Part shown: piece by piece, positions 5,705-58,538 of the stretch
How the letters are laid out: the number at the start of each line of letters is the position of its first letter
Numbering within the stretch: the stretch's first letter is position 1
From: Bdellovibrionales bacterium
GTDB lineage: Bacteria; Bdellovibrionota; Bdellovibrionia; Bdellovibrionales; UBA1609
Reading direction: 5' to 3'
Assembly: GCA_965203095.1 (NCBI GenBank)
Contig: OZ241877.1
Span: forward strand, 1,600,001 to 1,664,000
DNA: 64,000 nt
Translations under genes and position numbers: made by a program
The notes under the pieces: generated by a model
The model's input: only the letters and a program-made list of their open reading frames with translations
Told to the model about the DNA's origin: nothing
The model's database searches: none

Positions 5705-5967
5705 GAGTTGCCCCTGGAAAAGTCTACATTTAATAGATCGCATAAGCAAAAATTCACTGGACTTTTCAGTTCTCACCTTGAGCAGGAATCCAGTTAGATA
5801 AAGCAAAGGTTATTCTTAGTTTCTTTGCCTAAAGGTCCGTCCCATTTCGGGACGGGGAATACCTTGGACCCTTATGGGACGGCCTTTAGGCAAAAGTCAT
5901 TGAAAAGTCTGCCCCTATAAAAACAGGGAATGAGAAGGGCTAACTGAGGCTTTTTCACGGGGGACTA
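5705..5967. mobile_element. Dispersed palindromic MITE-like element, copy 1 (mosaic)
   Basis: Degenerate left end GAGTTGCCCCTGGAAAA, right end TTTTTCACGGGGGACTA, hairpin core TTTGCCTAAAGG..CATTTCGGGACGGGGAATACCTTGGACCCTTATG..CCTTTAGGCAAA. Left part matches the 58402 copy, right part matches the 21901 and 33741 copies. Confidence 0.75.
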
Positions 5968-5969
5968 AA

Positions 5970-6125
5970 TAGTTATCCGTGAAAAACCTTTGTTTTTTCT
6001 ATTCATTTCAACACTTTAGCTAATATCAAACATAGCTTAAAGTGTCATGAACCTAACTTTTTTTGTCCAAAGGACCATTCCATTTCGGTATAACAATACC
6101 TTGGATCCTCACCGAGGGCTTTGGT
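5970..6125. mobile_element. MITE-like element copy 2 (truncated), carrying a 56-bp nested insert
   Basis: Begins TAGTTATCCGTGAAAAACCTTTG; aligns with the reverse complement of the 17757 and 19509 copies except for the insert at 5999-6054. Confidence 0.75.
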
Positions 6126-6314
6126 TCTATGCTGAATTTTAAAAAACTGTCTCATTAAAGACGGGACTAAAAGCTTAAAACACACTTAAAGTTGAGTTTT
6201 AGGCAAGTTTTGGGCAAAAAAACAAAAAAATATAGACAAAAAGAAGAAAAACTGATTGAATTGCTTTGAACTTTCAAACCATACAGATTATGTTTTTTAT
6301 TAAAATTTTTTTCA

Positions 6315-6335
6315 CCCCCCCCCCCCCCCCCCCCC
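6315..6335 (+). repeat. C21 homopolymer tract upstream of the protease genes
   Basis: 21 consecutive C residues, 27 bp before the TTG at 6363. Confidence 0.9.
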
Positions 6336-6362
6336 ATAAGTCTGGGTAAACAATCTTATAAA

Positions 6363-8856: not shown

Positions 8857-9075
8857 GTTCCCGTGAAAACGGGAATCCATAGTCGTTCCCGTGAAAACGG
8901 GAATCCATAGTCGTTCCCGTGAAAACGGGAATCCATAGTCGTTCCCGTGAAAACGGGAATCCATAGTCGTTCCCGTGAAAACGGGAATCCATAGTCGTTC
9001 CCGTGAAAACGGGAATCCATAGTCGTTCCCGTGAAAACGGGAATCCATAGTCGTTCCCGTGAAAACGGGAATCCA
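8857..9075. repeat. Tandem array of a 28-bp palindromic unit (7 full copies plus 1 partial), dRS3/REP-like
   Basis: Unit GTTCCCGTGAAAACGGGAATCCATAGTC starts at 8857, 8885, 8913, 8941, 8969, 8997, 9025 and 9053; units are identical with no spacers. Confidence 0.97.
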
Positions 9076-9129: not shown

Positions 9130-9199
9130 TTTGTCCAAAGCCCGCCCCATTTCGGGACGGCAATACCTTGGACCCTCATGGGGCGGGCTTTGGACAAAA
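9130..9199. repeat. Hairpin core of the dispersed element, copy 3
   Basis: TTTGTCCAAAGCCCGCCC-CATTTCGGGACGGCAATACCTTGGACCCTCATG-GGGCGGGCTTTGGACAAA. Confidence 0.9.
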
Positions 9200-9233: not shown

Positions 9234-9320
9234 TAGTTTCTCGTGAAAAGGCTAAAAAATGATTCTGTCAGCAAAATCATGAACACATACAGGAATGACT
9301 TGCTTTTTCACGGGCAACTA
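9234..9320. repeat. Short coreless element with the same inverted ends
   Basis: TAGTTTCTCGTGAAAAG ... CTTTTTCACGGGCAACTA; contains a second copy of the 8831-8850 sequence. Confidence 0.6.
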
Positions 9321-10888: not shown

Positions 10889-11944
10889 TTGGGATCAAAA
10901 ATCATTAAAGTTTTATTGCTTTTGAGCCGATACTGTTCATGTATGTTTTTGATATTAATTTTAAAATCCGTTTTTTTTATCAGCTCAGTTTTTGCTAACA
11001 CAATGATAGAGCTGGGGGCCACTACGGGCATTGCCAATAGCCTTTCTCAACCTGCGGTCCATCAGCCCACAACAGCTATAAAAAAAGCTCAACAGGCGGT
11101 GCAAAAGTATGAAAAGGCTCAGCAAAATCGTTTGCCTCAGTCCAGTTCTTCTTCTCAGTTAGAGCCTAATGTGCCATCAGGGCCTTTGCCAATAGCTGGA
11201 GTAGCCAACATGTCAAGTGAAACAGGAGAAAAGGCCAAAGCCCCAGGCTCTGCCGTTGTGGGAGATAGTCCGGCACAAAATGAAGTGCCAAGGTCTGCCG
11301 TTGTGGGGGAGGGTCCGTCACAAAATGAGGTGCCAAAGTCTGCCGTTATGGGAGATAGTCCGTCACAAAATGAAGTGCCAAGGTCTGCCGTTGTGGGAGA
11401 TAGTCCGGCACAAAATGAAGTATCAAAATCTGCTGTTATGGGGGATAGTCCAGCACAAGCTGAGGTGCCAAAGTCTGCCGTTGTGGGAGATAGTCCGGCA
11501 CAAAATGAGGTGCCAAGGTCTGCTGTTATGGAAAGAGGTCCAGCACAAGCTGAGGTGCCAAGGTCTGCCGTTGTGGGAGATAGTCCTTCACAAAATGAAG
11601 ATCCCAGTGAAAACCCTCTGATAAAAGAAGAGGAATCAGCTAAATCGGAAATATTTTTTACTGAGGAGCCAACGGATGTAGAAGAATCCTCTTTAGATGA
11701 ATCTCAAAAAGAGGAGCAGGACCAACTGGCCCATCGGTTAAAGCAAAACAAGGCAGAAGAAGCCAATCCTGTAGACTATAAAGCAGATGTGCAGATTTTT
11801 TATAAAAGAAAGTGCCAAAACAATCAGAAAAACTGCAACAGAGGGCCTATCTTTACCAATATAAAAAGTGTGATTTTTAATTATAATCGCACTCAGGAAA
11901 GGAACTTAGCTCAGGCAAAAAAGAAGAAAAAAGCAAATCAGTAA
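10889..11944 (+). CDS. Hypothetical exported protein with eight 15-aa tandem repeats
   Basis: Signal-like hydrophobic segment (true start probably the ATG about 18 codons in), low-complexity region, repeats of SAVVGDSPAQNEVPR. Confidence 0.7.
   Translation: MGSKIIKVLLLLSRYCSCMFLILILKSVFFISSVFANTMIELGATTGIANSLSQPAVHQPTTAIKKAQQAVQKYEKAQQNRLPQSSSSSQLEPNVPSGPLPIAGVANMSSETGEKAKAPGSAVVGDSPAQNEVPRSAVVGEGPSQNEVPKSAVMGDSPSQNEVPRSAVVGDSPAQNEVSKSAVMGDSPAQAEVPKSAVVGDSPAQNEVPRSAVMERGPAQAEVPRSAVVGDSPSQNEDPSENPLIKEEESAKSEIFFTEEPTDVEESSLDESQKEEQDQLAHRLKQNKAEEANPVDYKADVQIFYKRKCQNNQKNCNRGPIFTNIKSVIFNYNRTQERNLAQAKKKKKANQ
11249..11600 (+). repeat. 45-bp coding tandem repeat x8
   Basis: TCTGCCGTTGTGGGAGATAGTCCGGCACAAAATGAAGTGCCAAGG and variants. 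Confidence 0.93.
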
Positions 11945-13050
11945 ATTGAGCGGGTATTACTCAAGTCAAAATCTTTTTTAATTTCCGGTATTTTTTTAGG
12001 AAGAGTTTTCATTGTATTCAACCAAAGCTCCGGTGTCTCCATACAGAGGAAGATAGGCCACTTAGAAGAATACTTTTGGAATCGGTTTTTGACATATTCA
12101 AACATTTCCTGGCGAACTTCTTGATCATAGCGGAGCTTTCCATCAGCTGAGCGAAAAAACTCTCCCCTACAAATCAGGCTTTTCATCCCAAACCTTTGCC
12201 TCATAATGGCTTTTTGCTTGGGCGAAAACCGCAAAGCACCCAGAGATATATGCTGTAGCTCCTTAGGTTGGAATTGGCTTGCGATCTGATCCACCAGTGC
12301 CCCGTAATGCTTTTTCCATTCCGGAAAACGGATTAAAGGGTCAATATGAAAGGAGATTTTAAAGCCTTTGTTCTTCAGTTTCCGGCCAGCAGATAATCTT
12401 TGTTTAAGGGAGCTGGTGCCATGCTCTTCTTTTTGAACAATAAACTCTGGATTGACAGACCAACTCACCACCACATTTCCTGCATGTGGGCTGTTTTCAA
12501 AATTTTTTATGTTATCGGATTTGGTTTTAAATTCTAACAGCCAGTGAGGGCAATTTTTAAAAAAATCAATAAGCTTTGTGGAATAAAGGCTCAGGTCGTC
12601 CAAACTGAGGCTATCGGTTTGCTCCCCAGTGCCTATGCGAATGTAAGTGTGGCCTTGTTTTTTTCTCAGCTCCCTCAGTTCTTGAAAGGCTTTTTCAATA
12701 TTGGTATAAATGACAACTGCTGGTAAATTGATAAAGGATTGAAGGAAGCAATAAGAGCAGTCCATCTCGCAGTTTTGCCCTAAGTTGAGAACAAAGTAAT
12801 TGCAACACATTAGCTTGGGTTTGGCCCCGGGGCATCTTTTAAAAAAAGAACCTTTAAATTCTTTTAGAAAAAGCGTTTTTTTAGCCTTCCTCCAATTTTT
12901 TGCGGGAATAGCCCCTACTTTAAAAAAATCTTCTGAAACGATTTGAATTTTGTTTTTAGGAAAAATCTTTAAAGCCCTTTTCGCCACAGCACTTTTTCGG
13001 GCTGTTTTAGAAATATAAACTTTGTCAAAAATTTTTAAATGTTTCGTCAT
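11938..13050 (-). CDS. Radical SAM protein, spore photoproduct lyase (SplB)-like
   Basis: CEMDCSYC (CxxxCxxC), GTGEQTDSL, EFKTKS, SWSVNP, CME near the C-terminus. Confidence 0.85.
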   Translation of the reverse strand: MTKHLKIFDKVYISKTARKSAVAKRALKIFPKNKIQIVSEDFFKVGAIPAKNWRKAKKTLFLKEFKGSFFKRCPGAKPKLMCCNYFVLNLGQNCEMDCSYCFLQSFINLPAVVIYTNIEKAFQELRELRKKQGHTYIRIGTGEQTDSLSLDDLSLYSTKLIDFFKNCPHWLLEFKTKSDNIKNFENSPHAGNVVVSWSVNPEFIVQKEEHGTSSLKQRLSAGRKLKNKGFKISFHIDPLIRFPEWKKHYGALVDQIASQFQPKELQHISLGALRFSPKQKAIMRQRFGMKSLICRGEFFRSADGKLRYDQEVRQEMFEYVKNRFQKYSSKWPIFLCMETPELWLNTMKTLPKKIPEIKKDFDLSNTRSIY

Positions 13051-13055
13051 AATAT

Positions 13056-15344
13056 TTAAGGGCAGGTAATAAGGGAATTGCCGGTGTCTTTATCTTTTAA
13101 AGGTTCAGGTAGCTTGTTAGTATCTAAAGCATCTAAGCTGGCCGGCCTTTGCGGAGGCTTAGCCGTTTGCAGTAGGGAGGAGAGCTGAACTCCAAACTCT
13201 TTCATTCTCTCACCAAAATGATTATCACAGAGATCCACCTCATAGCCCATTGCTTTTTTTGTATTCATCAAGTTCACAAATCTTCTCATGGATGCAGGAA
13301 CAGGTTTTTGAATTCCGTTTTCGCAATTAGCACCCCCATAGTTTGTTTTACTATTACTGTCATTGACAGCAATAAAGGCGATGGTTTTTTGAGGGTTGCG
13401 ATTAAGCTTCGAACTGCTAAATAAGAAATCTATCATTCCTTGGTGGTTGTTATCATAATCGTCTTCATCCGTTAAAAAATACAGGGCCAAAACTGCCTGG
13501 GATCTAAAAAATCCTGGGAGACTGCTTTTAATTCTCATAACAGGTCGAAAAAGTCGTTCATCCTGTGAGCCTTCAGTTCCGGCATTCTTAATTGCTTTCT
13601 TTAATCTGTCCTGGATTTGTGTAATGCTGGCCTTTCGCCCCCGGCAATTGGGTTTATTGCACAAAAAACTTCCCGATAAAAGATTTTTATTATCTGTGGT
13701 GACTACAGCAATATGGGTATCCACTTCATCATTTAAAAACTCTTCAAAAAACTGGATTAAATTTTTGGCCAAGTTTTCTTGTTCATGTTTCATACTTCTA
13801 GAATTGTCTATCACAAAAACCATATCCAATTTTGCTGACCTATCCTCAGCTTGGCAAAAAAGGCTTTTGTCTGTCACTTCAAAGCGACCAGTTTTTGAAT
13901 TGCAAACAGCAGTGTAAATGGTAGGGGATCTGCCATTAAAATCATACATAAATCTTAAAGGAGCACCATGGGCCACTCTTGTTCCAATCTGATGTTTATA
14001 AATCTCTTTAATATGTATGCTTTTGTTGGGAATAGGCCCTTCACCGTCCGAACTAATGCCCGGAGTAAGAGTAATATTTCCACCAGAACTGCAAGAAAAT
14101 TTATTAGAGGGATATTCAGGAACACATCTATTGTTGCTTTTTTTCACCCGGCCCCAAACATTTTTTGTCTCTCCAGTTAAAGGGGCTTTATCGCATGTTG
14201 CACCCATAATATGCCATTTACCAGAGTAATCACAAAGGGCGTATATAGAGAGATAGCCAAAATGATTTCCTTTTATGGAAACTTCTTTGGGCCTTGCGAA
14301 AGTATCTCCATAATCTCCCTCTGGAAGGGAAATTCTTCCAGAAATCTCCGCCCGCCCTTTCCCCTGACATATAGCCTGCATATCAGGAGAGTAGCTCCCC
14401 ACTGGATCCTCATTTTTATCTTTTTTGCAATAGGGTTTCAGATCAATAGAGCATTTGGGATGAGATAAAACTTCGGCCTGGCACCAACTTTTTTTGTTTT
14501 TTCTGCATTTCACTGTTTGCCCCTGTTTGCTCCCTCCAGAGCAATCCTTGTTTGAGGAAAGCGATCGATACTTCTCATCCCCTGTGGAATAAACCGAATC
14601 CGCACAGGAGTTATAACACCAAAGGCTATTGTTCCAATCCCCTTTATGGCAGTAAGTGTGAGACAAACAAGAAAGACTTCGCCCATCGTCATAAGAGTTT
14701 AAAGTGAGAGTTTTATAGCTTTTTCCATGGGGGCCAGGGTTTTCAATTAAGCTGGAAGTAATAGGGTTGAGACTGGACTGATCATAAGTGAGAATATGCT
14801 TAACCCCTCCTTTGCAAATTTGGGTGGATTCTGAACTTTTAAGGCAGTTGGAGATTTTTCCTTGGTTATCCCTTACAACTTCTATATAAGAGCTTTTTTC
14901 CCTTTTTTGCAAATCCCCTTGGACCTTAGCACTTAAAGTCCATTGGATGTGGGCCAGATCCATATTGTTTTTCAAAGGGAAAAAGGAGACTTCAATATCC
15001 CCGTTAAGATTTTGTTTCCAATCTTTAAAAAGGCCCTTGGCTTTTGATGGGGCATGGAGGTCCAAATCAATGCTCAATTCCGCTCCAGGGATTCCGGAAG
15101 ATTCTGCTTTTTTCATGGTCTCGGCACAAAAGTCTGGGTTTTTAAAAAACTTTTCTATAAAATGGCTGGTTTCCTCTTGAGATATATAGCCCTCTGAGTG
15201 CTGAATGGTTTTTAAATAAAGGTGAAGGTAGCCTAAGGACATAAAAGCCACAACAGAGGCCACCACAGTGCCCACTATCAACTCTATAAGAGAGAAACCA
15301 CTTTCTTTTTTTAAGGGTAATGGCATGAGGTTTTTAAACTCCAA
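13056..15344 (-). CDS. Large modular type IV pilin-like protein with Cys-rich middle region and C-terminal VWA domain
   Basis: Class III signal G|FSLIELIVG; LDMVFVIDNSRSM (MIDAS DxSxS), IAVVTTD, LTDEDD. Confidence 0.8.
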   Translation of the reverse strand: MEFKNLMPLPLKKESGFSLIELIVGTVVASVVAFMSLGYLHLYLKTIQHSEGYISQEETSHFIEKFFKNPDFCAETMKKAESSGIPGAELSIDLDLHAPSKAKGLFKDWKQNLNGDIEVSFFPLKNNMDLAHIQWTLSAKVQGDLQKREKSSYIEVVRDNQGKISNCLKSSESTQICKGGVKHILTYDQSSLNPITSSLIENPGPHGKSYKTLTLNSYDDGRSLSCLSHTYCHKGDWNNSLWCYNSCADSVYSTGDEKYRSLSSNKDCSGGSKQGQTVKCRKNKKSWCQAEVLSHPKCSIDLKPYCKKDKNEDPVGSYSPDMQAICQGKGRAEISGRISLPEGDYGDTFARPKEVSIKGNHFGYLSIYALCDYSGKWHIMGATCDKAPLTGETKNVWGRVKKSNNRCVPEYPSNKFSCSSGGNITLTPGISSDGEGPIPNKSIHIKEIYKHQIGTRVAHGAPLRFMYDFNGRSPTIYTAVCNSKTGRFEVTDKSLFCQAEDRSAKLDMVFVIDNSRSMKHEQENLAKNLIQFFEEFLNDEVDTHIAVVTTDNKNLLSGSFLCNKPNCRGRKASITQIQDRLKKAIKNAGTEGSQDERLFRPVMRIKSSLPGFFRSQAVLALYFLTDEDDYDNNHQGMIDFLFSSSKLNRNPQKTIAFIAVNDSNSKTNYGGANCENGIQKPVPASMRRFVNLMNTKKAMGYEVDLCDNHFGERMKEFGVQLSSLLQTAKPPQRPASLDALDTNKLPEPLKDKDTGNSLITCP

Positions 15345-16189
15345 TTGTATTCAAAGTCACAAATCCCGATGGCTTTTGCAACAGTCTTTTCCCCCTGGCA
15401 ATCGCTTTGCACTCGGGTTTTTTCAGGATCTTCTCTGGTTTCGGTCAAGCCAACCTGCTCCGGATCTCCTGGGCGGGCTTTTTCAGTATAATCTTTTCCC
15501 ACTTTAAATTTTCCTCCATGTTTTTGCGGGTCAAGAGTTAAATTATAAATGTATCTGCAACAGATCACTGTGATATTTTGTTTTTCACAGTTCAGTTTTT
15601 GAGTTTGTTCTTCAGAAGTGGAGCAGGTTTGGATTCGCCCTGATTTTTTTGCGATATAAATAGGGGCATAGATAAAAAACTGCTCTTTTCCTTTTGAAAA
15701 ATGCATTCGCATTGTGGCCACACTGTGGAACAAACCAGATTTTTGAGGGTGCTCCTCTCGGTCTAAAGAGAGGTTTTTAACCGCTTGGCTTTTGTAATCC
15801 TTATAGTTTTCAGGAGGTTGTTCTATGATTTTTATGGCTTTAACTCTGAGATTGGTTTTTTCATAAAAGCCTGATTTTTTATAAAAATCCTTATCGCTAA
15901 CTGAAAGATCAAGAATAGTTTTCCCGTCAAAACCTTTAATTAAAGTCACATCTTGATTTGTGTTTTTAAAAGTGTTCCGGCAAGCCTTTTCATTCAGTAA
16001 GCTATTCAAAATGATTTGCTTGAGTTTTCCTTGGCTGAGCTGTTGTTTTCGGGTTTTTTCCATCTCCATAAAAGAGTTAATGTTTTTGTGCAGGTTTAAA
16101 AGTAAAAATTCTACAAACAGGGCTACAAGTAAGACTGACAAAATAGTAAAAACTCCCTTTTCTGATTTTATCAAGCTTTTCATAAACAT
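15311..16189 (-). CDS. Minor pilin-like protein (lacks Glu5; PilX/GspK-type)
   Basis: EKG|VFTILSVLLVAL N-terminus; within the pilin operon; paired Cys. Confidence 0.6.
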   Translation of the reverse strand: MFMKSLIKSEKGVFTILSVLLVALFVEFLLLNLHKNINSFMEMEKTRKQQLSQGKLKQIILNSLLNEKACRNTFKNTNQDVTLIKGFDGKTILDLSVSDKDFYKKSGFYEKTNLRVKAIKIIEQPPENYKDYKSQAVKNLSLDREEHPQKSGLFHSVATMRMHFSKGKEQFFIYAPIYIAKKSGRIQTCSTSEEQTQKLNCEKQNITVICCRYIYNLTLDPQKHGGKFKVGKDYTEKARPGDPEQVGLTETREDPEKTRVQSDCQGEKTVAKAIGICDFEYNWSLKTSCHYP

Positions 16190-16204
16190 TTTTACCTCTA
16201 CTCA

Positions 16205-17164
16205 CTACGGAGTTGTGGAGCCTCTTTCTAAACAGATCAGGCTCTCTTGCCAAACGCCATCTCGGCAGTAAAAATTAAAGTTGCAGGCACAAAAATCTGT
16301 GACCCGCTCATACTGAAGAGTTTCTCCTGAAAGGCCTTTTTCCAAAGAGATTGAGATAGAGGGTGGGTTTAAAGGGTTGAGGCTTTTATCTGTGCAACTG
16401 ATCACAACAGTTTTATTTTTATCAGGTTTTCTTACTGTCATAAAAACTTTTTTTGTTTCTGCCAAGCAGGCGGGAGGTGTTAAGTGACAGCCTGCAATGA
16501 CTCCGTTTTTTAAAACTGTATAAATTTTAAGAGTTCTTTCAAACTCCCCTTTGTGGCTGTCTTTTAAATCTTCCATCCTTTCAGATACTCTTTTGCTTTT
16601 GGCCGGAGTTTTTTTTGATCTTCGAGAGTAAAAAATGATTTTAAGCCGGGCATGAGAATCAAAAACAGGGTCCTTTTCTAAACTCATGGATTTGATGGAA
16701 ATGTGGGAATCTTTTAAAACGGTATCCACGGGTTCATATTTGCTGGCCCCATAAGTTTTTTGAGAGACCTGATCTTTAACCGCATATAGGATATGGTATT
16801 CGTAAATGGGTTTTCCCTGAGCGTCTATTTTTCCCCGATGAGTCACAGGATCTATAAGGGGCCGGCGGATTTTAATTTCCGGAGCACTGTTGTCTGTTCT
16901 CTTAATGCCGGTATCTGCTGTGTTGACATATTGAGAATCTAATTTATCGCCTATAAGGCTATCACAATTCCCGTAAGACAAAATGCGATGGACACGATTA
17001 AAGTGCTGATCGATAATTCGAGAATCCATTACATATTGCAAACTGGAAATATGTCGGGCGGAGCGGGCAGTAATAGCAATAATTAAGCTCATAAGGGCTA
17101 AGCCTCCAAGGGCCTCAACGATTGACATTCCTGAAGAGTTTGAAATGTGGCTTGGCTTTTCCAT
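16205..17164 (-). CDS. Minor pilin-like protein
   Basis: SG|MSIVEALGGLALMSLII prepilin motif. Confidence 0.7.
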   Translation of the reverse strand: MEKPSHISNSSGMSIVEALGGLALMSLIIAITARSARHISSLQYVMDSRIIDQHFNRVHRILSYGNCDSLIGDKLDSQYVNTADTGIKRTDNSAPEIKIRRPLIDPVTHRGKIDAQGKPIYEYHILYAVKDQVSQKTYGASKYEPVDTVLKDSHISIKSMSLEKDPVFDSHARLKIIFYSRRSKKTPAKSKRVSERMEDLKDSHKGEFERTLKIYTVLKNGVIAGCHLTPPACLAETKKVFMTVRKPDKNKTVVISCTDKSLNPLNPPSISISLEKGLSGETLQYERVTDFCACNFNFYCRDGVWQESLICLERGSTTP

Positions 17165-17176
17165 AATCTATTTGCC

Positions 17177-17683
17177 CTATTGAGAAATGCAATCCGCACT
17201 TTCTGTTTTTGAGCAGTCACTTTGATTGTCCTTAAGCTTTTGCATGCAATTTTGCTCGTTAATAGTGAAATTGGGCAGTGTATTGTTTTGATTTGCTGTG
17301 CCCGCTTTGAAGGAATTATTAGCAGAGTCCACAGTGCAAGAGGATCCCAGTGGCATGTTGACAGTAGCCCCTTTGCTACTGTTGTGAAAGCCCAACTTGT
17401 AGTTTTTAGAATCCCACTTAAAGCCTATATCATCTACAGAGGCAGAGTAATGCCCGTTTTCTATTAAAAAACTTTGTTCCTGCCGGTAAAAATCGGACAA
17501 GCCGTATTTGGCTTCCAAGATTTTAGCAGAACCTTTTATAAAGCCATAGCGAGGCACAGCTATAGCCGATAAGATAATAATGATCACTATTACCACCAAC
17601 ACTTCCACAAGAGAAAAACCCTGCCTTTTGCGGTATTGGTTCTTATTTTGGTGGGCTACTTTTTGAATTTTTTTATTGAACAT
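17177..17683 (-). CDS. Type IV pilin (PilE/PilA-like)
   Basis: QG|FSLVEVLVVIVIIIILSAIAVPRY; EAKYGL; C-terminal Cys pairs. Confidence 0.88.
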   Translation of the reverse strand: MFNKKIQKVAHQNKNQYRKRQGFSLVEVLVVIVIIIILSAIAVPRYGFIKGSAKILEAKYGLSDFYRQEQSFLIENGHYSASVDDIGFKWDSKNYKLGFHNSSKGATVNMPLGSSCTVDSANNSFKAGTANQNNTLPNFTINEQNCMQKLKDNQSDCSKTESADCISQ

Positions 17684-17756
17684 GGCTTGTCCTCAGTTTT
17701 TATTAGCCCTCATATTGTTTGCAGAAGAACCTCCGTTTTCACAAAAACTGGCTTTC

Positions 17757-17914
17757 CTGGATTCCCGTTTTCACGGGAGCTAAAAAGCCTCGTCTTCTTT
17801 TTCCTGCTTTTGTCCAAAGGCCATTCGGTGATGGTCCAAGGTATTGTTATACCGAAATGGAATGGTCCTTTGGACAAAAAAAGTTAAAAAACAAAGGTTT
17901 TTCACGGACAACTA
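17757..17914. mobile_element. MITE-like element copy 4, left end replaced by a dRS3-like palindrome
   Basis: CTGGATTCCCGTTTTCACGGGAGC, then near identity to the 19509 copy, ending TTTTTCACGGACAACTA. Confidence 0.8.
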
Positions 17915-18157
17915 ATTATTATTTTGCCATAATTTTTCAAATTTTCAAGTTTTACTGATTTTATGGGCTGTTTTCATGCAGGAATACGGGAATATACGGG
18001 AATATATACGGGAATAAAGGGGCTTTTTCAGTAAGATCATTTCAAACGGACAAAACTAACAGATAAAAAGATTCCCGTAAAAGGCAGAACAGACGGGCTT
18101 TTTCAAGACTTTGGCCCGTCCCTTTTTTGAATAGATGCTCAATTTATGCAAAAAAAA

Positions 18158-19138: not shown

Positions 19139-19147
19139 TAGGGCTTA

Positions 19148-19444: not shown

Positions 19445-19508
19445 AACTTTACTCGTATAATAAGATCAGCAGTTTGAAAAGGATTTTTTTAACAAGGGAT
19501 ATTTTATT

Positions 19509-19665
19509 TAGTCCTCCGTGAAAAAGCTGAACAAAAAGCCTCGTCCTCTTTTTCCTGCTTTTGTCCAAAGGCCATTCCATGAGGGTCCAAGGTATTGCCG
19601 TCCCGAAATGGAATGGTCCTTTGGACAAAAAAAGTTAAAAAACAAAGGTTTTTCACGGACAACTA
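19509..19665. mobile_element. MITE-like element copy 5 (complete, 157 bp)
   Basis: TAGTCCTCCGTGAAAAA ... TTTTTCACGGACAACTA with the core in reverse orientation. Confidence 0.85.
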
Positions 19666-19666
19666 T

Positions 19667-20848
19667 TTATTGTTTCCCCCGGTGCAACTCAAAGAACAGG
19701 AACTGGGTCTTTTGCTTTTTGTCGTTAAAATTATTATCACTCACTAAAACCATAAGTTGCTTTTTGGGCTTTTTATGGGGGCTTAAGGAAGGCTTTTTGT
19801 CAACAGCTAATGCCCATCTCTTTTTCACTGGCAAAAAAGGACCTAAGGCCAAACCCTCTAAATTGTCCACTAAGATCTGTTGTTGAGAGGAATCCCACAA
19901 GAGTTTTTTAGAGCAAGGTTTAAAACCTTTTTTAAGTTGAATATGAGCTTGGATCCGGCTGGCTTTCCGGCAGTCAGTGAGAAAAATATAAGCCCTATTG
20001 GCCATCCCATTGTTTGATTTTTTGTAAAAAACCCTCTCTAAACTGATAAAAACTTTAGGGGATAGCCATTGTAAAGCGGTCAGCCCGCCCTCTTGGCCAT
20101 TGTGCAGGGCATAAGCATATTGTTCGCGGAGTTTTTTGCTTTTGATGTCAAAAGCACTCAGCCGGACAAAAGATTTTTGTTTAAAGATGGAATCTTGTTT
20201 GAGAGGAATTTCAGTCGCGGTCCAAAGGCTGTTGGAATTTTTGTCCAAAGTGAGGGATTCAAAACCTTTGTTGGCCACCTGTCCAAAAAAAGGAGGTTGT
20301 GGGTTTTTCCCAGGGGCCCAAAACACAGGAGGAACAGGCCAGGCCTCTTTTAAAACAGCAGACTGATCAAAGGTGAAAATTTGAGTAGGCTCATGGACAT
20401 TATAAATTTGTTGCCCCTCTGAGGCGATAAAAAAAACACTGTCGCTGTAAATCACTAAGGCTTCTGGGTCCATATTTCTTGTCAATCGGTCATGCTCTAA
20501 GTTTTTGAGAAAGACCTGCTCTTTAATGCTCAGCCGGTAATGGGGTTGAGTGCTCAGGCTCAGCTTATAATAGCGATGGTTGGTTTTATCATCGGAAAGG
20601 GCATAAAAATAACCTGAAGAAGGATGAAAAATCAGCCCACTTAAGCCCCCCACCTTTAAACCTTCAAATTTTTTGTTTTTTTCAAAAACTTGTAGATCTT
20701 TAAATTCAACAGAAATGTCAGGAACCTTTGATGATAAAAGAGAGCAGTTGGCAAGGGCCAAAAAAAACAGAATCCCTAATAAAATCCCCAGGGCTTTCTT
20801 TAACATAATCTCTTTAAGACAGGGGAAAGCTCTATTTGTCAATCCCAA
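19667..20848 (-). CDS. Esterase-like activity of phytase family lipoprotein
   Basis: GGLSGL, YALSDD, DPEAL, ASEG, NKGFESL, DNLEGL, LVSDNNF..Q.TQFL; lipobox-like LANC. Confidence 0.85.
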   Translation of the reverse strand: MGLTNRAFPCLKEIMLKKALGILLGILFFLALANCSLLSSKVPDISVEFKDLQVFEKNKKFEGLKVGGLSGLIFHPSSGYFYALSDDKTNHRYYKLSLSTQPHYRLSIKEQVFLKNLEHDRLTRNMDPEALVIYSDSVFFIASEGQQIYNVHEPTQIFTFDQSAVLKEAWPVPPVFWAPGKNPQPPFFGQVANKGFESLTLDKNSNSLWTATEIPLKQDSIFKQKSFVRLSAFDIKSKKLREQYAYALHNGQEGGLTALQWLSPKVFISLERVFYKKSNNGMANRAYIFLTDCRKASRIQAHIQLKKGFKPCSKKLLWDSSQQQILVDNLEGLALGPFLPVKKRWALAVDKKPSLSPHKKPKKQLMVLVSDNNFNDKKQKTQFLFFELHRGKQ

Positions 20849-21900: not shown

Positions 21901-22089
21901 TGGTCGCTCGTGAAAAAGCTCTGTAATTTACAAGGGACTCTTCAGTTTCTTTGCCTAAAGGTCCGTCCCATTTCGGGACGGGAATACCTTGGACCATCAC
22001 CGGACGGCCTTTAGGCAAAAGTGATTGAAAAGCCTGACCCTGTAAAAGTAGAGAATGAGAAGGACTAACTGAGGCTTTTTCACGGACTA
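21901..22089. mobile_element. MITE-like element copy 6
   Basis: TGGTCGCTCGTGAAAAA ... TTTTTCACGGACTA; core TTTGCCTAAAGG...CCTTTAGGCAAA; inverted near-copy of 33741-33932. Confidence 0.85.
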
Positions 22090-22135
22090 TTAATAGGTAG
22101 ACACAGCTACAATCAAAAAACAGACTTTTAACTTT

Positions 22136-33740: not shown

Positions 33741-33932
33741 TAGTCCCCCGTGAAAAAGTCTCAGTAAGACCTTCTCATTCTCTGCTTTTACAGGGGCAGA
33801 CTTTTCAATCACTTTTGCCTAAAGGCCGTCCCATGAGGGTCCAAGGTATTGCCGTCCCGAAATGGGACGGACCTTTAGGCAAAGAAACTGAAGAATCCCC
33901 TGTGAATTATAGAGGTTTTTCACGAGCGACTA
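33741..33932. mobile_element. MITE-like element copy 7 (complete, 192 bp)
   Basis: TAGTCCCCCGTGAAAAA ... TTTTTCACGAGCGACTA; sits between trmD and rplS. Confidence 0.87.
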
Positions 33933-44776: not shown

Positions 44777-47293
44777 ATGACATTACAAGCATACCACAAA
44801 CAAATTTTAAAACTTTCAAAAAAACCAGGGCATGAAACAGTCAAACACTTGCTTTGCAATATTTTAAAAGAAAAACTTGGTGCAACAGATGATGAAATAA
44901 CTTTAGAGGCGAATCTTTTAACTTGCAGAGGTCGAATTGATGCTCTATGGGGCCGAACTATTTTTGAAGTCAAAAGCGATCTCAACAGGGAATTGTCTTC
45001 TGCAAAATCTCAAATCAAAAAATATATTCAATCCAAAGAAGAGGAATCCAGAACAACAAGAGAAAAATATGTTGGAATTGCTACAGATGGACAAAAATAC
45101 AAGGCTTATTTTCTCCTTAACAATGAATTGAAGTCAATCAATGAGTTTGTTTTGAATAAAGATAAAGCCTCTGAATTTATCCAATGGTTAGAAAGTGTAA
45201 TTCTTATCAAAAAACAGCTGGAACCGACACCGGAAATTATCTGTAAGGAAATAGGTCAAGGTAGCCCACTTTGCATGAACGCACTGATAAGGATCAAGAG
45301 TCTTTGGGCACAAGCCCAACACCGGCCGGATATAAAATTGAAATATGATTTATGGAAAAAATCTGTTGATATTGTCTATGGAACAGAGGGTGCGGATGAA
45401 TCTCTTTTTGTTGAGCATACCTATTTGACAATTATTTCTAAAGCGATAGCTCATGTTGCTTTTTTCCATTCCTCTCCACCCTTAGGAAAAGCTCTCTTAA
45501 GTGGAAAATTGTTTAAGGAAGCCAGTATTGCTGGTATTATTGAGGATGATTTTTTTAGTTGGGTAGCCTTTTGTGGGGCAGGAAATGATTTGATAAGACA
45601 AATCGCTTTGCATGTTCACCGGTTTGACTTTTCTGTTGTTCAAGCGGATATTTTAAAAGGCTTGTATGAGGGGCTTATCCGGCAAGAGCAAAGGCACAAA
45701 ATGGGAGAATATTATACTCCCGATTGGTTGGCTGAAAAAATTTGCAAAAAAGCTATAAAAAAACCCCTCGAAAACAGAGTAATTGATCCAGCTTGTGGCT
45801 CCGGAACTTTCTTGTTTCATGCCATAAGGCTTTTAATTGCAGTAGCTGAAAACAAAAACATATCTGCTAAAGATACAATAAGCCTTATATGTGACAAAAT
45901 TGCAGGGATTGACATTCACCCTGTGGCGGTTATTTTTTCCAGAATCACTTATCTATTGGCCATGTTGAAAACAATAAAAAAGGGCCGTCCTGATAACATG
46001 AGCATTCCAGTTTATTTAGGGGATTCGCTTCAATGGAGCATAGATGAGGTTCTTGGAGAAAAGAGTTTGAGAATAACTGTTCCTGAAGATCAGCAGACGG
46101 GTGCACAAAAAAAACAGTTGATTTTTCCTGAATCTGTTTGTTTAAACAGGAGTCAGTTTAAAGAAGTTTTAGATAAGATGCGTGGATTGGCCGGAAAGCA
46201 TAAAGAACCAGAGATTTTTCAGTCATGGATTAAACAACAGTCAATTAAAAAGGCAGAAGCTCAAACTCTTTTCGAAACTTATAAAACATTGTTAAAACTT
46301 CAAAAAGAGAATAGAAATCATATTTGGGGCTATGTCGCAAGCAACTTGGCTCGTCCGATATGGCTTTCTTCTGAAAAGCAAAAAGCGGATATTGTTATCG
46401 GAAATCCGCCTTGGTTAAGATTTAACAGTATGAATAAAAAAATGCAGACAAGGTTAAAAGAAGAGTGTTTTTCTTTCAATTTGTGGAAGAGAAAAATAAA
46501 AAAGAGAGAAGGAAAATCAGAAGACAAATACAGACAGCGGAAGAGGAGAGAGGCCAAGTTTAGAACAAGTCAGGACATTTCCACCTATTTTTTTATTCGG
46601 TCTGTTGATTTGTATATGAGAGAAAAAGGATTGCTGGCTTTTGTTATGCCCTATGGTGTTATGAATGGAGAGCATCATTCTATTTTTAGAGAAGGATTTT
46701 TTGAAAGAGAAAGTGGAATCTCCATACATATTAAATTTGAAAGTGCATGGGTTTTTGACTCAGAAGTAAAAAACCTTTTTAAAGTTCCCTCATGTGTTTT
46801 GTTCTCTGTCAGAAAAGAAAACTCTGAAGAAAAACCATCACTTCCCAAAATTTTGTGTTTCAAAGGAGTTTTGCCTCAAAAAAATGCCAGCTTAAAACAA
46901 GCAGTCAAAACTTTATCTCAAGAGAAAAAGGAATGGCCTACTTTTAATGTTTATGATAGCCAACAATCTGATTATTATAATAAGTTCAAGCAAGGGGCCT
47001 CTTTAGTTCCAAGGAGATTTATCTTTGTTGAGAAGATCCAAAAAGGAAAGCTTGGGGGTTCTGCCAGTAAGCCTCTTGTCAAAGGGCTTACATCCAATCA
47101 GGATAAAGCCCCTTGGAAAGAGATTGAGCCTCCGGAAGGAAATATAGAATCCCCATTTTTAAAGCCAGTATATACTGGACAGTCTATCGCTCCCTTTAGA
47201 GTGCTTAAGAGAAATTTGGCTGTAATCCCTTACATTAATGAGGCGGGGGTGATGAGTGCCAAGGAGGCAGGACATCAAGGTTGGACTGATTTA
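44777..47293 (+). pseudogene. Fused type IIG restriction-modification enzyme (PD-(D/E)xK plus N6-adenine MTase), 3' end cut by IS630
   Basis: GRIDAL..TIFEVKS, IATDG, GEYYTPDW, DPACGSGTFL, IGNPPW; the last 12 aa of the ORF are read from IS sequence. Confidence 0.85.
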
Positions 47294-48428
47294 TACTGGT
47301 CTTGTTTGAATTTTCAGGTTTCGATGACATGAAAATTATCAGTAATAAGCATGGACAATTCAGCCCTGTATTTTCTAACACCTCTTAAAAACAGCATCAA
47401 CTCTTTACGAAAAGTTTTAAGATCTGAAAAATACACATTAGCCATTGTCTTCTTCTTTACAAATTTCCAAAACCTCTCAATAGGATTCAAATTAGGAGAA
47501 AATGGAGGCAAATACAGCAAAGTAATATCCAAACTTTTCGCTAAATCCCTCACCTGAAAGGCCCTGTTATATGGTGCATTGTCTAAAACCAAATACAACC
47601 TTTTATCCCTCATAGGCTGTCTCGCCCTCACAGCTCGCAATAACTCCTGCATTGAATTTTTATTAACCCTCTCACAGCTTCTACTGACAAAATCTAAACT
47701 ATTTATCTCTATCGCACCATTTATATTCACCCGCTCACGACCTGAATTAGTTTTAACCTTAAACTCCACCCCCTTCTTAATCCAACCCGATGATATTACA
47801 GGATTGAGCATAGGATGAGTTGAATCCGCAAAATACACTAAATCACCTCTCTTTTTTATCCTGCGATATCTTTGAATAAACACCTTCTGCTTCTCAATAT
47901 CAGCCTTCCCAGGCACACCCTTTGGCTTCTTATATGAAAAATCTAACTTGTGAAGTAAAGCCGTCATTCCATTCACAGTATAAACAACCCCAAATGTCTT
48001 TTGAACATATAAAACAACTGCCTTTGTTGTGGGATATACCTTTGACTCCAACTCCAAAACCAGTTTCTTCCGTTGTTCCTCAGATAAATACGACATGCGA
48101 CCTCTATGATCGTCATAAACCAACCTCGACAAACCTCCTTCTTCATAACGCCTTTTGCAGTTTCTGATAGTTCCTTCATCAAAAAATAAAAATCTCGCAA
48201 TATCGGTGACAGACTCTCCACTATCCAGCAACAAAATAACCCGGATACGATCCGCTCGCCTACGATTCCTTTCCAAACGAAGAAAAGTTAAAAGCTCTGC
48301 TTTTTGCTTGCCAGTTAAAAATGAGTTCATAGAAACATATTATAGAACATCCAAAAGATTTGGAAAACTCATAATGCCAAAAACTAAACCTTTATCAAAA
48401 AAACTTGATTTTTTAAATCAAACCAGTA
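47294..48428 (-). mobile_element. IS630-family insertion sequence, about 1135 bp
   Basis: Imperfect TIRs TACTGGTCTTGTTTGAATTTTCAGG / TACTGGTTTGATTTAAAAAATCAAG, flanked by TA at 47292-93 and 48429-30. Confidence 0.9.
47314..48330 (-). CDS. IS630-family transposase (single intact ORF)
   Basis: N-terminal HTH region, FADSTHP, LVLDNAPY, YLPPFSPNLNPIERFW (DDE triad). Confidence 0.95.
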   Translation of the reverse strand: MNSFLTGKQKAELLTFLRLERNRRRADRIRVILLLDSGESVTDIARFLFFDEGTIRNCKRRYEEGGLSRLVYDDHRGRMSYLSEEQRKKLVLELESKVYPTTKAVVLYVQKTFGVVYTVNGMTALLHKLDFSYKKPKGVPGKADIEKQKVFIQRYRRIKKRGDLVYFADSTHPMLNPVISSGWIKKGVEFKVKTNSGRERVNINGAIEINSLDFVSRSCERVNKNSMQELLRAVRARQPMRDKRLYLVLDNAPYNRAFQVRDLAKSLDITLLYLPPFSPNLNPIERFWKFVKKKTMANVYFSDLKTFRKELMLFLRGVRKYRAELSMLITDNFHVIET

Positions 48429-48542
48429 TATGTTTATTATAACAATGTTGAGAAAAAGTTTGTCTGAAAGCCCCTTGGGCTTTCAAGCTCCCTTGCAAAC
48501 GAGAATCTACATATCTTTCTTTGTGAGGAAGGACAGGGATTC

Positions 48543-48608
48543 CTGGATTCCCGCTTTCGCGGGAATGACGGAGTCCGCGGGAATGACGAGTTTTTCACGG
48601 GCAAATTA
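48543..48608. repeat. dRS3/REP-like palindrome, a half copy and an element end
   Basis: CTGGATTCCCGCTTTCGCGGGAATGAC, CGCGGGAATGACG, TTTTTCACGGGCAAATTA. Confidence 0.85.
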
Positions 48609-48685
48609 TACTGATCACAGTTGAAGTTTCCGGTCACAATAGAATAGAGAAGGCAGGAATTTTCAAACAAAATCGGTATAAGTAG

Positions 48686-54586: not shown

Positions 54587-54623
54587 TTTTTTAATCTCTC
54601 TCTTAATGCAGTAAAAATTTTTT

Positions 54624-57617
54624 TTAATGATGTCCTTTTTTTAAAATGCTTTTGCTGTTTCTGATCTTAGTTTTGTATTTGACCGCCGGTTTGGTATTCA
54701 AAGTGGCGTCTAAAAGAGCATAACTGTTTTTAGCATGAAAAGCTTTGCTCACTTTAGACTTTGGATCATTTAGATCCCCAAAAACAATAGCTGAGGCCGG
54801 ACAAGACTGTTGGCAGGCGGTTTGAATGTCACCGTCTTTTAACTTCCTGTTCTCTTTTTTAGCTTGAGCCTTGCCCTCCTGAATCCTTTGGATACAAAAA
54901 CTGCACTTTTCCATAACCCCTCTATGACGAACAGTCACATCGGGGTTTAAAGCCAAATTTAAAGGTTCTTCTTTTTTTGTGTAATCAAACCAGTTGAAGC
55001 GTCGCACTTTATAAGGGCAGTTGTTTGAGCAATAGCGAGTGCCCACACAGCGGTTATAAACCATATCATTTGTGCCCTCATCACTGTGAACCGTGGCCAA
55101 CACAGGGCAAACCGTTTCACAAGGGGCATTATCACAATGCATACAAACTACTGGCTGATGGACTGTGGAAGGGGCAGAAGGAGATCCTTTGTAATAGCGA
55201 TCCACCCTTATCCAATGCATTTCCCGCCCTTGGAGGACATACTTTTTCCCCACCGTGGGAATATTGTTTTCCGATTGGCAGGCTATCATACAGGTCCCAC
55301 AACCATTGCAACTGTTGAGGTCTATCACCATTCCCCATTTATGCCCTTTGTATTTGTGTTTGGACCAAAGGCTCATAGCTTTGTGATGGTGAGGGATGCC
55401 AGAAGAAGGGTCTTTTTTAAATTCACTGAGACGGCTTTCTAAAACAATATCTCTTCCCTCCATAGAGTGATGCCCCTGGACATTGGCCAAAGGGATAACT
55501 TTGTTTGTTTTTTTGATTTGCACCGGTTGACCAGAAAAAACAAATAACTTTTCTACCTGAGCCAAAGGGTAGGCATTAACACCTCGATCATCGCCAATCG
55601 ATCCGGCTTTTGTCCGGCCATAACCTATGGCCAAGGAAAGAGAGCTATCTTCTTGCCCCGGCTGAATATGCACAGGGGCGGTGAGAGAAGCCTTACTTGT
55701 TAAAAGCTCCACAACAAGCCCCTCTTTTAAGTTTTCCTTAAGAGCTGTGGCTGGAGAGACACAGAGGTAATTGTCCCAACAAATTTTTGTGACGGGGTCG
55801 GGAAATTCCATAAGCCAAGCCACATTAGCAAGTTCACCTTGCTTTAATGCAGAGCTTTCATAAAGGCTGAGAAAATATTTTCCCTCCGCCGGGGCATAAG
55901 GCTTTATATATTTTAAAGTTTTTGTTGGGAAGGGGCGGGTAGGGGAGTGAGCGATTTTCTGAGATCCAACAATCCCTGTTTTTAAAAACTTTTGCCAAAA
56001 GCCGGGAGATCTTCTTTTTTGCCAATAATTTTTAATGTATTCATAAAAGTTTTTTTCCGGAATAGCTAAGCCAGAGGCTTTAAGCCATGTGATTAAGCTA
56101 TCTTCAAAAGATCTAATATTGTAAAGGGGGCGAATAGCAGGTTGTTGAATTGTAAAGATCCCTTTTTTAAATTCCCAATCAGACCATTTTTCTAAAGGAT
56201 GAGAATCGGGCACAAGATAATCGGCATAAAAACCGGTTTCATCTATGCGATCTCCAGTGTAAATCACAGTTTGAGCTTTCTTTATGGCTGAAAGAAACTG
56301 AGGACTATTGGCGTAAGAGTAAACAGGGTTTACTCCATGGATAATCAATGTGTCCACCCGCCCTTGGTTTAAATTAGAAATTAACCTATTCATTTCAGAA
56401 TAAGATCCCCATTTATAAGGGTAGGATTGCTTGTAATTTACGGTTTTCCCGTCATTACCTAAGGCTGAATTTAAAAAATTGGTTAGAATATGAGCTGAAA
56501 GGGAATCCTTAGTTTGAGTTTTTAAGCCTCCAAAAAGAATAAGCCCCTGGCCCTTGTTTTTTATCAGCTGAGAGGCCCACTCCTCCCACTTAGAGGGAGG
56601 AATTTTAAGCCTTGCCATAGCTGGCTCATAGTTTTTAAATAAAATTTTTAATTCTTCTAAGGCGGGAAAGGCCCCTTTTTTTATTAAAGCCTTGGTTAAG
56701 GCCAAAAGGGCAGGGGTATGCTCAGTCACTTTGAGGCGATGCCTTTCATCCGCATTGGAGCCAGTGAGGGACATTAATGATTCTAAAACCACCAGCCGGC
56801 TCATATCTCCTTCCGGCAAGCGACTTTTGGCAAACTGTTTTTGAAACTCTGTAGGAGAGAGATAAGTTCCGAGAAAATCGCAGTCAATAGAGAGGATGAA
56901 TCGAGCTTGAGATATATTGTAAGAGGGGATGAGGCTTTTCCCGTAAGAGAGTTTTTGTGCCTGGCCTAAGTCTTCTAAACTGATAGGGGACCAAACATAA
57001 TGTTCTGCTTTAAAAACCGATCGAAATTTTTTTATCAATCTTTGAGTGGAAGGGGAGGGGATGCGATCTGTTAGCAAGGCCGTTCGGCCCTTTTTAAAAG
57101 TTTGTGATAGATTTTTGTCCAACTCCTCAAAAGAGATATTAATAGTCTCTTTATTGGTTTTTTTGTCGTTAAAAAGATTTTGCTTAGGGCCTTTAACTCT
57201 CTCCGGATCATAAAGGCTTAAAATATAGGCACTGGCCCTTGGGGAGAGGCCGGAACTGTTGAGAGCTTTGGCCTCTTCATTGCCTTCAATTTTGATGGGC
57301 CGGCCTTCTCTGGTTTTAATTAAGGTAGAAAAACCCTCCCCCCCGTCATAATAGGAAGAGGCGTAGTAATTGGCTGAACCAGGGATAATGTCCACTGGGC
57401 GGTTAATGTAAGGGACTAATTTTTCCGCTGGTCTCCTCATACAGCTCGCACTGCTTAGGGCCAGCCCCGCCCCCATAAGTTGTAAAAACTCCCGGCGATT
57501 AGTCCCCACCTCCTCTTTAGAGGGCAGTGGGGAGAGAAATTCTTTTTGAGCCTTCTCCTTAAAAGAGGCTTGGTTTTGATAATCTTGTAGACTCAACCAA
57601 TATTTTTCTTTACTCAT
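54624..57617 (-). CDS. actB: ACIII subunit ActB (molybdopterin-like plus Fe-S domain, Tat signal)
   Basis: NRREFLQ Tat motif, [55 protein letters not shown]. Confidence 0.95.
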
Positions 57618-57698
57618 TGTTCCTCCTCCAGTTTTTTAACTGGCTTTTTTTTAAAAAAACTTTAGCCATGTTTTCTATCCTTATTAAAATTAAAAAAC

Positions 57699-58292
57699 TC
57701 AATAATGGCAAGTGGAGCAGTTTATAGGGGCTTGCTCATGCCCCTGCTCTTTTAATTCTTTCAAAATTTTTCCCTCTTTTGGTGATTGGCGATGGCAGTT
57801 AACACACCAACCCATAGAAAGACTGCCATGTTGGAACAGGACTTCCATCTCTTCCACAGGGCCATGGCAGACCCGGCAATCCTTTCCGGCTTGGATATGG
57901 TGGAAATGGGAGAATTTAACAAAATCAGGTAAGAGGTGGACTTTTTCCCAAGCAATGGGCTGGCCCTCATTATAAGCTGAAGTGATTTTTTTTATCCATG
58001 GGCTGTTTGTTTTTACAGTCCGATGGCAATTCATGCAGATATTTAAGCTGGGAAGGGTGGAGGGACGGCCCGATTCCACCCCTGTATGGCAGTAGAGGCA
58101 GTCGATTTGATATTCCCCCGCATGCAGTTTGTGGGAAAAGGGGATAGCTTGTTCTGGCTGATAGCCTTTATTATAAAGCAGGCTGATTTTGTTGTTGGTG
58201 AGCAAATAAAAAAACAAGGATAGCACAAGGAAAAAAAGACTGAGCAGAATCGCCCCCATAAGTTTTTTCTTCAAAATTTTTTTTAACTTCAA
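57699..58292 (-). CDS. actA: ACIII multiheme cytochrome c ActA
   Basis: Five CxxCH motifs (CLYCH, CMNCH, CRVCH, CVNCH, CSTCH); PFSHKLHAG. Confidence 0.93.
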   Translation of the reverse strand: MKLKKILKKKLMGAILLSLFFLVLSLFFYLLTNNKISLLYNKGYQPEQAIPFSHKLHAGEYQIDCLYCHTGVESGRPSTLPSLNICMNCHRTVKTNSPWIKKITSAYNEGQPIAWEKVHLLPDFVKFSHFHHIQAGKDCRVCHGPVEEMEVLFQHGSLSMGWCVNCHRQSPKEGKILKELKEQGHEQAPINCSTCHY

Positions 58293-58401
58293 GATGTATC
58301 CCTTTTTGGCTTAAGAAAGCCTTATTTTTCTTAACTGTCCTGTTGGAGTCAAGATATTTTTTGTAGTGGCATTTGAGTAAATTCTCTGATAATTTATTAA
58401 A

Positions 58402-58538
58402 GAGTCGTCCGTGAAAAAGGCTATATTTGATAGATCGCATAAGCAAAAGTCCAGCTTGTTCGCGGGAAAAATACCTTGGACCCTCACTGCTGACTTTTGC
58501 TTGTGCGATAAAAGACAGAGGTTTTTCACGGGGGACTA
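58402..58538. mobile_element. MITE-like element copy 8 with an unrelated stem sequence
   Basis: GAGTCGTCCGTGAAAAA ... TTTTTCACGGGGGACTA; stem ATCGCATAAGCAAAAGT(C)CAGC / GCTGACTTTTGCTTGTGCGAT around AATACCTTGGACCCTCA. Confidence 0.8.

Follow-up and report, generated by a model that had tools for sequence, protein, structure and literature searches.

The 64,000-nucleotide stretch of a Bdellovibrionales genome analysed here (positions 1,600,001 to 1,664,000 of contig OZ241877.1; hereafter the window) contains a dispersed family of short repeats built around a hairpin with a conserved core. These repeats are very likely miniature transposable elements with inverted repeats (MITEs) of the IS5 family of insertion sequences (ISs). 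The account that we favour, with reasonable though not high confidence, is that one IS5 lineage supplied the hairpin, as part of its right end, and that the repeats were copied by an IS5 transposase acting in trans. The genome that holds the window (G000; 1.8 Mb, in an assembly that is 90% complete) carries 114 hairpin cores, retained from 125 genome-wide candidates at a fold energy below -15 kcal/mol (11 were dropped), and 92 exact matches to an 11-nt word of the loop.

Ends, target duplications and copies in the window

A weight matrix built on 143 strict end matches identifies 235 ends in G000 that form 76 adjacent left-right pairs, 52 of them shorter than 300 bp, with size peaks at 153, 188 and 133-134 bp. 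An exact TA..TA duplication flanks 27 of these 52 short pairs (24 of 6 bp and 3 of 7 bp), compared with 4.9 expected from cross-paired flanks of different elements (P = 8e-15), and in a further 14 the duplication is off by one base. The first-pass annotation of this DNA had already noticed that complete copies possess inverted ends, which holds, but its lengths of 137-192 bp do not: the terminal TA is the edge of the 6-7-bp target duplication, so that the elements are shorter, namely 133, 153 or 188 bp with 15-bp terminal inverted repeats. A complete end pair encloses 46 of the 114 cores. Within the terminal repeats, the six outermost bases differ between copies that are otherwise near-identical, both among the MITEs of G000 and among the IS5 copies of another genome, G485, as if ends had been exchanged.

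The elements are non-coding, shorter than 500 bp, present in many copies and mostly intergenic (12 of the 114 cores lie within a gene proxy based on open reading frames (ORFs), and 8 of these proxies are shorter than 150 amino acids); their terminal inverted repeats are common to autonomous IS5 elements, and their target duplication has the length and consensus of that of the partner. These features agree with those that define MITEs in the accessible part of PMC10969869. The earlier suggestion of a non-autonomous mobile element is thereby borne out by the ends, the duplications and the IS5 elements with the same ends, and can now be given the name of an IS5-family MITE.

Autonomous elements of this kind are found in other taxa. 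A scan of Genome Taxonomy Database (GTDB) contigs for the end 17-mer identifies at least 101 stretches from many phyla, 80 of them with flanks, and among the 94 loci examined four (L113, L117, L154 and L163) are full-length, measuring 1343-1593 bp, and have the end motif on both sides. The protein of L117, the one scanned of the four, is an IS5-family transposase (528 bits on NF033578, cut-off 275); it is matched in 13 of 109 same-family genomes, and in G000 through weak matches to IS1634 only. In same-family genomes, G017 included, intact IS5 copies (L204, L216, L226) have similar ends and exact duplications of 6 or 7 bp, and 6-7-bp duplications of the TA..TA type occur at L117, L204, L216, L226 and L281. 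The same combination of core and ends is found also at loci L103, L109 and L139, which come from Bdellovibrionales bacterium records.

All eight cores listed in the first-pass annotation are present in the window, in both orientations. The copies and the repeats that adjoin them, including repetitive extragenic palindromes (REPs), are as follows, the strand of an element being the one that reads TGAG...CGAA.

5707..5965, minus strand: composite element made up of a degenerate end at 5707 bearing a subtype-C stub, what is left of a CGTC-type REP, a subtype-A hairpin at 5825-5894, and one intact end of 15 bp at 5951-5965
5972..6124, minus strand: second element, adjoining the 5707..5965 element via one common TAAATA, with a 15-bp end (5972-5986), a 71-bp piece that has an inverted copy at 2606-2676, and a subtype-B hairpin (6062-6124) minus one arm
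8858..9075, plus strand: REP array of eight tandem 28-bp palindrome units of the CGTC-1/dRS3 type, adjoining the 9130 hairpin
9130..9199, minus strand: hairpin with core; the stem is perfect and unbulged, and the hairpin is not flanked by an end pair of its own
9236..9318, no strand assigned: core-less end pair, 83 bp, with the same inverted ends
17758..17912, plus strand: subtype-B element with one end replaced by a REP (17758-17780), hairpin at 17809-17877 and intact end at 17898-17912
19505..19669, plus strand: complete 153-bp subtype-B MITE (element 19511-19663) with the exact 6-bp duplication TATTTA on both sides and the hairpin at 19560-19628
21903..22090, minus strand: complete subtype-A MITE of 188 bp, with a dprA-family gene on one side and an alaS-like ORF on the other (the latter a label that rests on the ORF translation, not on a family scan); flanks not duplicated
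33743..33930, plus strand: complete subtype-A MITE of 188 bp, located in the spacer between trmD and rplS
58404..58536, minus strand: complete 133-bp subtype-C MITE whose flanking hexamers differ at one base
62268..62302, minus strand: half copy of subtype C, cut within the core by an IS630-type end

The REP array at 8858..9075 belongs to the same mosaic region and not to the MITE proper. The trmD-rplS spacer is free of the element in five same-genus genomes with trmD upstream of rplS, which are too diverged for the junction to be read. Contigs of four sequencing runs over 12000-23500 break at repeats; one contig joint skips the 17809 hairpin with 31 letters on its short side, which lie within a repeat, and is not used as evidence of an empty site. 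No clean paralogous empty site is found in G000 among the matches listed.

The hairpin core and its place at an IS5 right end

Folded as DNA on both strands, all five cores that were analysed are highly stable (z = -5.8 to -9.1; none of 200 shuffles is equal). The compensated arm swaps between copies, the unrelated stem sequence at 58434 and the reassortment of loop halves across stem types, all described in the first-pass annotation, are observed as well. The 33-nt loop of that description is indeed a conserved stretch but not an open loop, given that RNA folding closes a 3-bp inner helix within it on the TGAG...CGAA strand. This helix is adjoined by an internal loop, GA/GA(A), which might form sheared pairs. 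The core proper amounts to 28 nt and is the only long stretch common to all subfamilies. An unpaired base in the 5' arm, which had been attributed to most copies, is present in 13 of 13 distinct subtype-C stems of G000 but is not general: the 9130 hairpin is devoid of it and only 2 of 23 distinct stems of the same class in a further genome, G484, have it in the same place. The bulge is a trait of G000 that is mostly missing from G484, where most of the 23 distinct long stems are perfect over 17-22 bp. The apical tip is hypervariable: six IS copies that are 96.5-99% identical over the 200 nt upstream have six different apical loops, four of which hold an inserted hairpin resembling one found next to REPs. 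In 8 of 113 copies, a subtype-C arm is joined to an arm of the A/B class, so that these copies are chimeras.

The likely source of the hairpin is found in G485. Locus L225 of this genome is an intact 1580-bp IS5 element with a complete transposase ORF of 445 amino acids (468 bits on the IS5 model). Its right end contains the hairpin; the stop codon of the transposase falls within the 5' arm, and TGAG...CGAA is the sense strand. Six transposase-linked copies in G485 have the hairpin at the right end, as has one such copy in G484, and truncated G485 copies contain it too; 11 of 11 matches to the 3' word of the core in G485 are IS5 right ends or their derivatives; the single match to this word in G481 is unrelated coding DNA. 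When the whole L225 element is compared with G000, the best and repeated matching covers the hairpin (IS positions 1481-1538). From core to end the IS measures 44 nt, a distance close to that in subtypes B and C (37-42 nt in 46 G000 copies), and subtype C, represented in the window by 58404..58536, is the type nearest to the G485 right end. Finally, L351 of G485 is a 169-bp element in which the left half reverse-complements one variant of the right end and the right half represents another, the two being joined within the arm; as judged from this arrangement, L351 appears to be a MITE caught at birth. Taken together, these observations make it the probable scenario that the hairpin was inherited from a single IS5 lineage, in which it is part of the right end.

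The core word has 147 matches in G484 and 28 in G488, with background numbers in G481 and G017, and the core is not found in nine other genomes of the genus of G000 except for two single matches in coding DNA. A scan of 401 genomes of the phylum with a corrected 16-mer yields background numbers, with 14 genomes showing 1-2 matches, similar to the reversed control, and G485 as the one known true carrier (matches outside G485 were counted, not inspected). Among viral contigs there are nine matches, none of them followed by the 3' half of the core, and plasmids give no match.

Several observations weigh against this scenario. The direction from IS to MITE is observed once, in L351, and no such hairpin is present in other IS5 lineages with like ends (L202, L203, L204, L340, L341), which implies that the L225 lineage acquired it; alternatively, then, the hairpin may have been captured by the IS. 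No matching IS5 transposase or remnant thereof is detected in the G000 assembly with tblastn or a six-frame profile search, and present-day mobility of the G000 copies would, with no cognate transposase found, be conjecture. A single end lies within 140 nt of 29 of the 114 cores and none near another 39, many of these being located in REP mosaics. Conversely, 6 of the 52 short end pairs do not contain a full core, and because four of these carry exact duplications, the core is probably dispensable for transposition. Among 58 copies that have a subtype flank, 57 keep one orientation of the loop and the exception is a chimera, so that loop inversions, one signature of template switching, are nearly absent. 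Mismatches of the G.T and A.C types occur in a ratio of 67:62, without strand preference (the counts are noisy at alignment ends), and the three pair types seen in the inner helix (see below) may reflect merely two or three events. SbcD, found neither in four carrier genomes nor in the non-carrier control G034, hence offers no explanation of the pattern, and all five genomes tested contain MutS. The split between leading and lagging strands (46 of 114, P = 0.049) is not used here, given that GC skew shows no clear origin.

Paired stems, constraint on the core and competing explanations

The mechanism that we envisage starts from an IS5 transposase, supplied in trans, that likely copied the repeats around the genome. 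The small elements would arise by recombination of two right ends, or by inverted copying of one, within the hairpin arms, yielding a near-palindrome with an end on each side; such an origin is seen for L351 and extrapolated to the others. Stems that change and still remain paired would reflect re-copying of one arm from the other, by template switching or conversion, and halves would be swapped between copies through the core, the one long stretch that all subfamilies have in common. According to the accessible part of PMC8794818, template switching creates and maintains paired stems of this kind, and we lean, with some reserve, towards the view that copying and recombination keep the present stems paired. 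The chances are about even that the core is selected only in those copies that found new subfamilies, in the form of a folded single strand, TGAG...CGAA, with tandem G.A pairs that would favour copying or end-swapping, and that copies decay neutrally after insertion. A more specific possibility, which we consider unlikely, is that the core is a cis-acting signal of the IS5 lineage, a folded single strand with tandem G.A pairs, a 3-bp helix and an exchangeable tip, that recruits a nicking or repair activity; IS ends would thereby be swapped and copied anew, with MITE families being born at the hairpin.

Compensation in the stems, from which selection on a fold had been deduced, is genuine: among 43 distinct inner helices, 0.79 of positions pair, compared with 0.58 after shuffling (0 of 2000; the copies are related, so that no probability is attached). 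The deduction itself is weakened because an unrelated 25-nt hairpin repeat that accompanies REPs in G000 covaries as strongly, pairing at 0.73 of its variable positions compared with 0.46 after shuffling (0 of 5000; 42 distinct sequences, some of them chance matches). Within complete copies (subtype A, n = 12; B, n = 17; C, n = 15), private mutations per 1000 sites amount to 15.4 in cores, 15.5 in spacers and 8.8 in stems; the core and the spacers do not differ (19/1232 and 35/2258 site-copies, P = 1.0) and the stems and the spacers differ marginally (P = 0.053). Inserted cores, then, decay like spacer DNA and stems slightly less. On the longer scale, the consensus core is identical in subtypes A, B and C, the spacers of which cannot be aligned, and is common to two genera. 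Of 36 G484 copies listed (of 73; loop types other than the main core type), 33 have G-C, T-A or A-T as the middle pair of the inner helix, on both tip types. A role of the core at the level of the element is plausible on this comparative evidence, at roughly even odds.

Two competing explanations, each of them possible although doubtful in our estimation, concern the core itself. The core might be free of selection altogether, in which case recent descent from one IS end, fast turnover of the arms and crossovers within the core would suffice to homogenise it. The equal density of private mutations in cores and spacers, the core-less elements with exact duplications and the covariation of other hairpins are all compatible with this possibility; it does not readily account for a core that is unchanged between subtypes whose partner-less spacers are unalignable, nor for its presence in two genera, nor for an inner helix that changes in compensated pairs next to a kept GA mismatch, on both apical-loop backgrounds. 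Alternatively, the core could be an independent repeat, a CGTC-type REP turned inside out, with the REP tail TCCA first and the REP head CGTC or AGTC second, similar to a unit of the Neisseria dRS3/NIME (Neisseria intergenic mosaic element) arrays, that was dispersed by the agent of REP spread and picked up IS5 ends secondarily. Indeed, the core holds TCCA followed by CGTC, and the REPs of G000 start with AGTC (29) or CGTC (11) and end with TCCAG (25) or TCCAT (20), words that fit the tag and tail in the accessible part of PMC3733652; one core variant holds the left half of a local REP and in some copies a REP replaces an arm; the 39 cores with no end nearby and the six near-identical IS copies with six apical loops, four of them holding the hairpin that resembles the REP-adjacent one, point in the same direction. 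On the other hand, the common words are 4-10 nt long, with no null comparison behind them; in G485, each core is linked to an IS5 right end; as for an enzyme behind such spread, neither a Y1 nor an IS110 gene is found in G000; and a small GIY-YIG gene flanked by REPs is seen in G481 only, a genome that does not contain the core (nor does any of the 12 GIY-YIG loci listed). That the core contains the REP tail and tag words in reversed order and exchanges parts with REPs is suggestive only.

The remaining explanations assign the hairpin to a different machinery or to the host. As a substrate of a single-strand site-specific recombinase or HUH nuclease, as in integron attC sites or the REPs served by REP-associated tyrosine transposases (RAYTs), the hairpin would be recognised through an extrahelical base, as the first-pass annotation had proposed. 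The long imperfect hairpin, the fixed loop length, the chimeras with crossovers in the core and the hypervariable apical loop of near-identical IS copies would suit such an enzyme; given that the bulge is not conserved, that the 90%-complete G000 assembly yields no Y1, IS110 or reverse transcriptase gene (no search was aimed at tyrosine or serine recombinases), that the Y1 transposases of G485 and G488 have unrelated ends, that reverse transcriptase genes have no core nearby, and that target duplications indicate a DDE enzyme, this explanation appears improbable. Even less probable is a non-coding or cis-regulatory RNA of the host that selection on the bacterium maintains, a reading close to the structured ncRNA proposed in the first-pass annotation. 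In 3 of 4 copies tested, the TGAG...CGAA strand folds better as RNA, by 3-4 kcal/mol, and it is the mRNA strand at the stop codon of the IS; yet the element shows no orientation bias with respect to transcription, being sense in 20 and antisense in 20 co-directional spacers (defined with ORF-based gene proxies), inserted cores decay neutrally, the element is not found in the other nine genomes of this genus, the two coding-DNA matches aside, and it has no counterpart in Rfam (a search of Rfam 15 returns only generic hairpin matches far below the gathering threshold, so that a catalogued family is not apparent).

Associated repeats and comparison with known systems

REPs of the CGTC-1/dRS3 type occur in the window at 8858-9075, 17758-17780, 23539-23578 and 48543-48582, in mosaic arrays like the NIMEs of Neisseria, and are often followed by the 25-nt hairpin with compensated arms. 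In the accessible part of PMC1797815, NIME arrays are described as unseen outside Neisseria as of 2007. CGTC-type REPs have no dedicated transposase according to the portion of PMC3733652 available; in G481, a GIY-YIG gene of about 100 codons (L262) lies between two such REPs of the same orientation. Larger ORFs (234-283 codons) with an N-terminal GIY-YIG domain are found at G000 C1:374349 and 378992 and at L269-L278, in 1-5 copies per genome in five related genomes. Same-family genomes contain another conserved core, centred on GGCAAAACGCATG, that includes an inner hairpin and is enclosed by variable, well-paired arms; it is often located within the same IS5-type ends (L102, L178, L217, L222, L233, L273, L291, L296, L308, L209) and has no exact match in G000.

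Two other IS families of G000 were considered as partners of the MITEs and rejected on account of their unrelated ends, namely IS1634 (four copies) and IS630 (eight identical copies). The IS1634 copies (L001-L004; C1:175258-177179, 971121-973042, 1227585-1229518 and 1350952-1352884) are flanked by direct repeats of about 1369, 1160, 3342 and 84 bp, which may be an assembly artefact; IS1634 elements make long duplications of variable length, and kilobase lengths look unusual. One of the IS630 copies, all 1141 bp long and, being identical, recently active, is located at 47290-48430 of the window. A separate 74-bp repeat with IS630-like ends (48607-48680 and 2766-2831; 24 pattern matches on the main contig) is probably an IS630 MITE. 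The window contains also a coding tandem repeat of 45-bp units at 11204-11645 (in ORF 10889-11944) and 15-bp pentapeptide-like tandem units at 44217-44351, where no ORF is listed. Contig C2 of G000 (17191 bp) is a head-to-tail concatemer of a 1109-bp unit, without a long ORF or a match on the main contig, and is perhaps satellite DNA of the host or an assembly artefact.

As far as the accessible part of PMC3189936 goes, the closest described counterpart is MITEPsy1 of Pseudomonas syringae, an IS5-family MITE with a 4-bp duplication. Both are short and non-coding, have imperfect terminal repeats common to IS5 that end in TGAAAAAGC-like words, and generate a target duplication; mobilisation in trans is described for MITEPsy1 and would apply here. 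The present family differs in the duplication of 6-7 bp (TA..TA) rather than 4 bp, in its roughly 100 copies and several subfamilies, in the long internal hairpin with an invariant core, and in that no partner transposase is found in the host assembly. With the IS5 elements of NF033578 (L117, L204, L225) the MITEs share the 15-bp ends and the 6-7-bp duplication, and with L225 also the hairpin, which in the IS lies 44 nt from the right end; they retain only ends and hairpin, and other IS5 lineages with like ends do not possess the hairpin. CGTC-tagged REPs, as presented in the same accessible text of PMC3733652, consist of a stem of 8-9 bp with a loop of 4-5 nt, preceded 5' by an unpaired CGTC tag and followed 3' by a CCA tail, whereas here the tag and tail words lie inside the loop and in reversed order, and the hairpin element additionally has IS ends and a target duplication. 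The G000 palindromes often abut the hairpin in mosaic arrays whose units reshuffle by recombination, as do those of the CGTC REPs and Neisseria dRS3/NIME (PMC3733652; PMC1797815).

REPINs (REP doublets forming hairpins) with their RAYTs, as well as integron attC sites, are characterised by folded single-strand geometry and an imperfect palindrome. In the present case, no Y1 transposase gene is flanked by the repeat, the extrahelical base is not conserved, the loop is conserved rather than variable, and a target duplication is present. No description of this family of hairpin MITEs was found among the literature listings, abstracts and passages covered (those of PMC11578231 included), and it may have a catalogue entry, for instance in ISfinder.

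The MITE nature of these repeats is itself ordinary and settled. What appears more informative is the graded series, from an intact IS5 with a right-end hairpin and an element with two right ends, both in G485, to tens or more than 100 diversified copies in G488, G484 and G000, which makes the birth of bacterial MITEs testable with a 1.6-kb element. The same holds for the question of why some MITEs keep a folded core that end recognition by the transposase should not need. Should the core be a cis-acting signal, the activity that it recruits might be the same, still unknown one that spreads CGTC REPs, and the second conserved core inside the same ends in relatives raises the possibility that IS5 MITEs generally depend on such modules. 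For covariation screens, the family carries a caution: perfect stem compensation appears here in repeats that are unrelated yet belong to the same genome, and so does not have to indicate a functional RNA.

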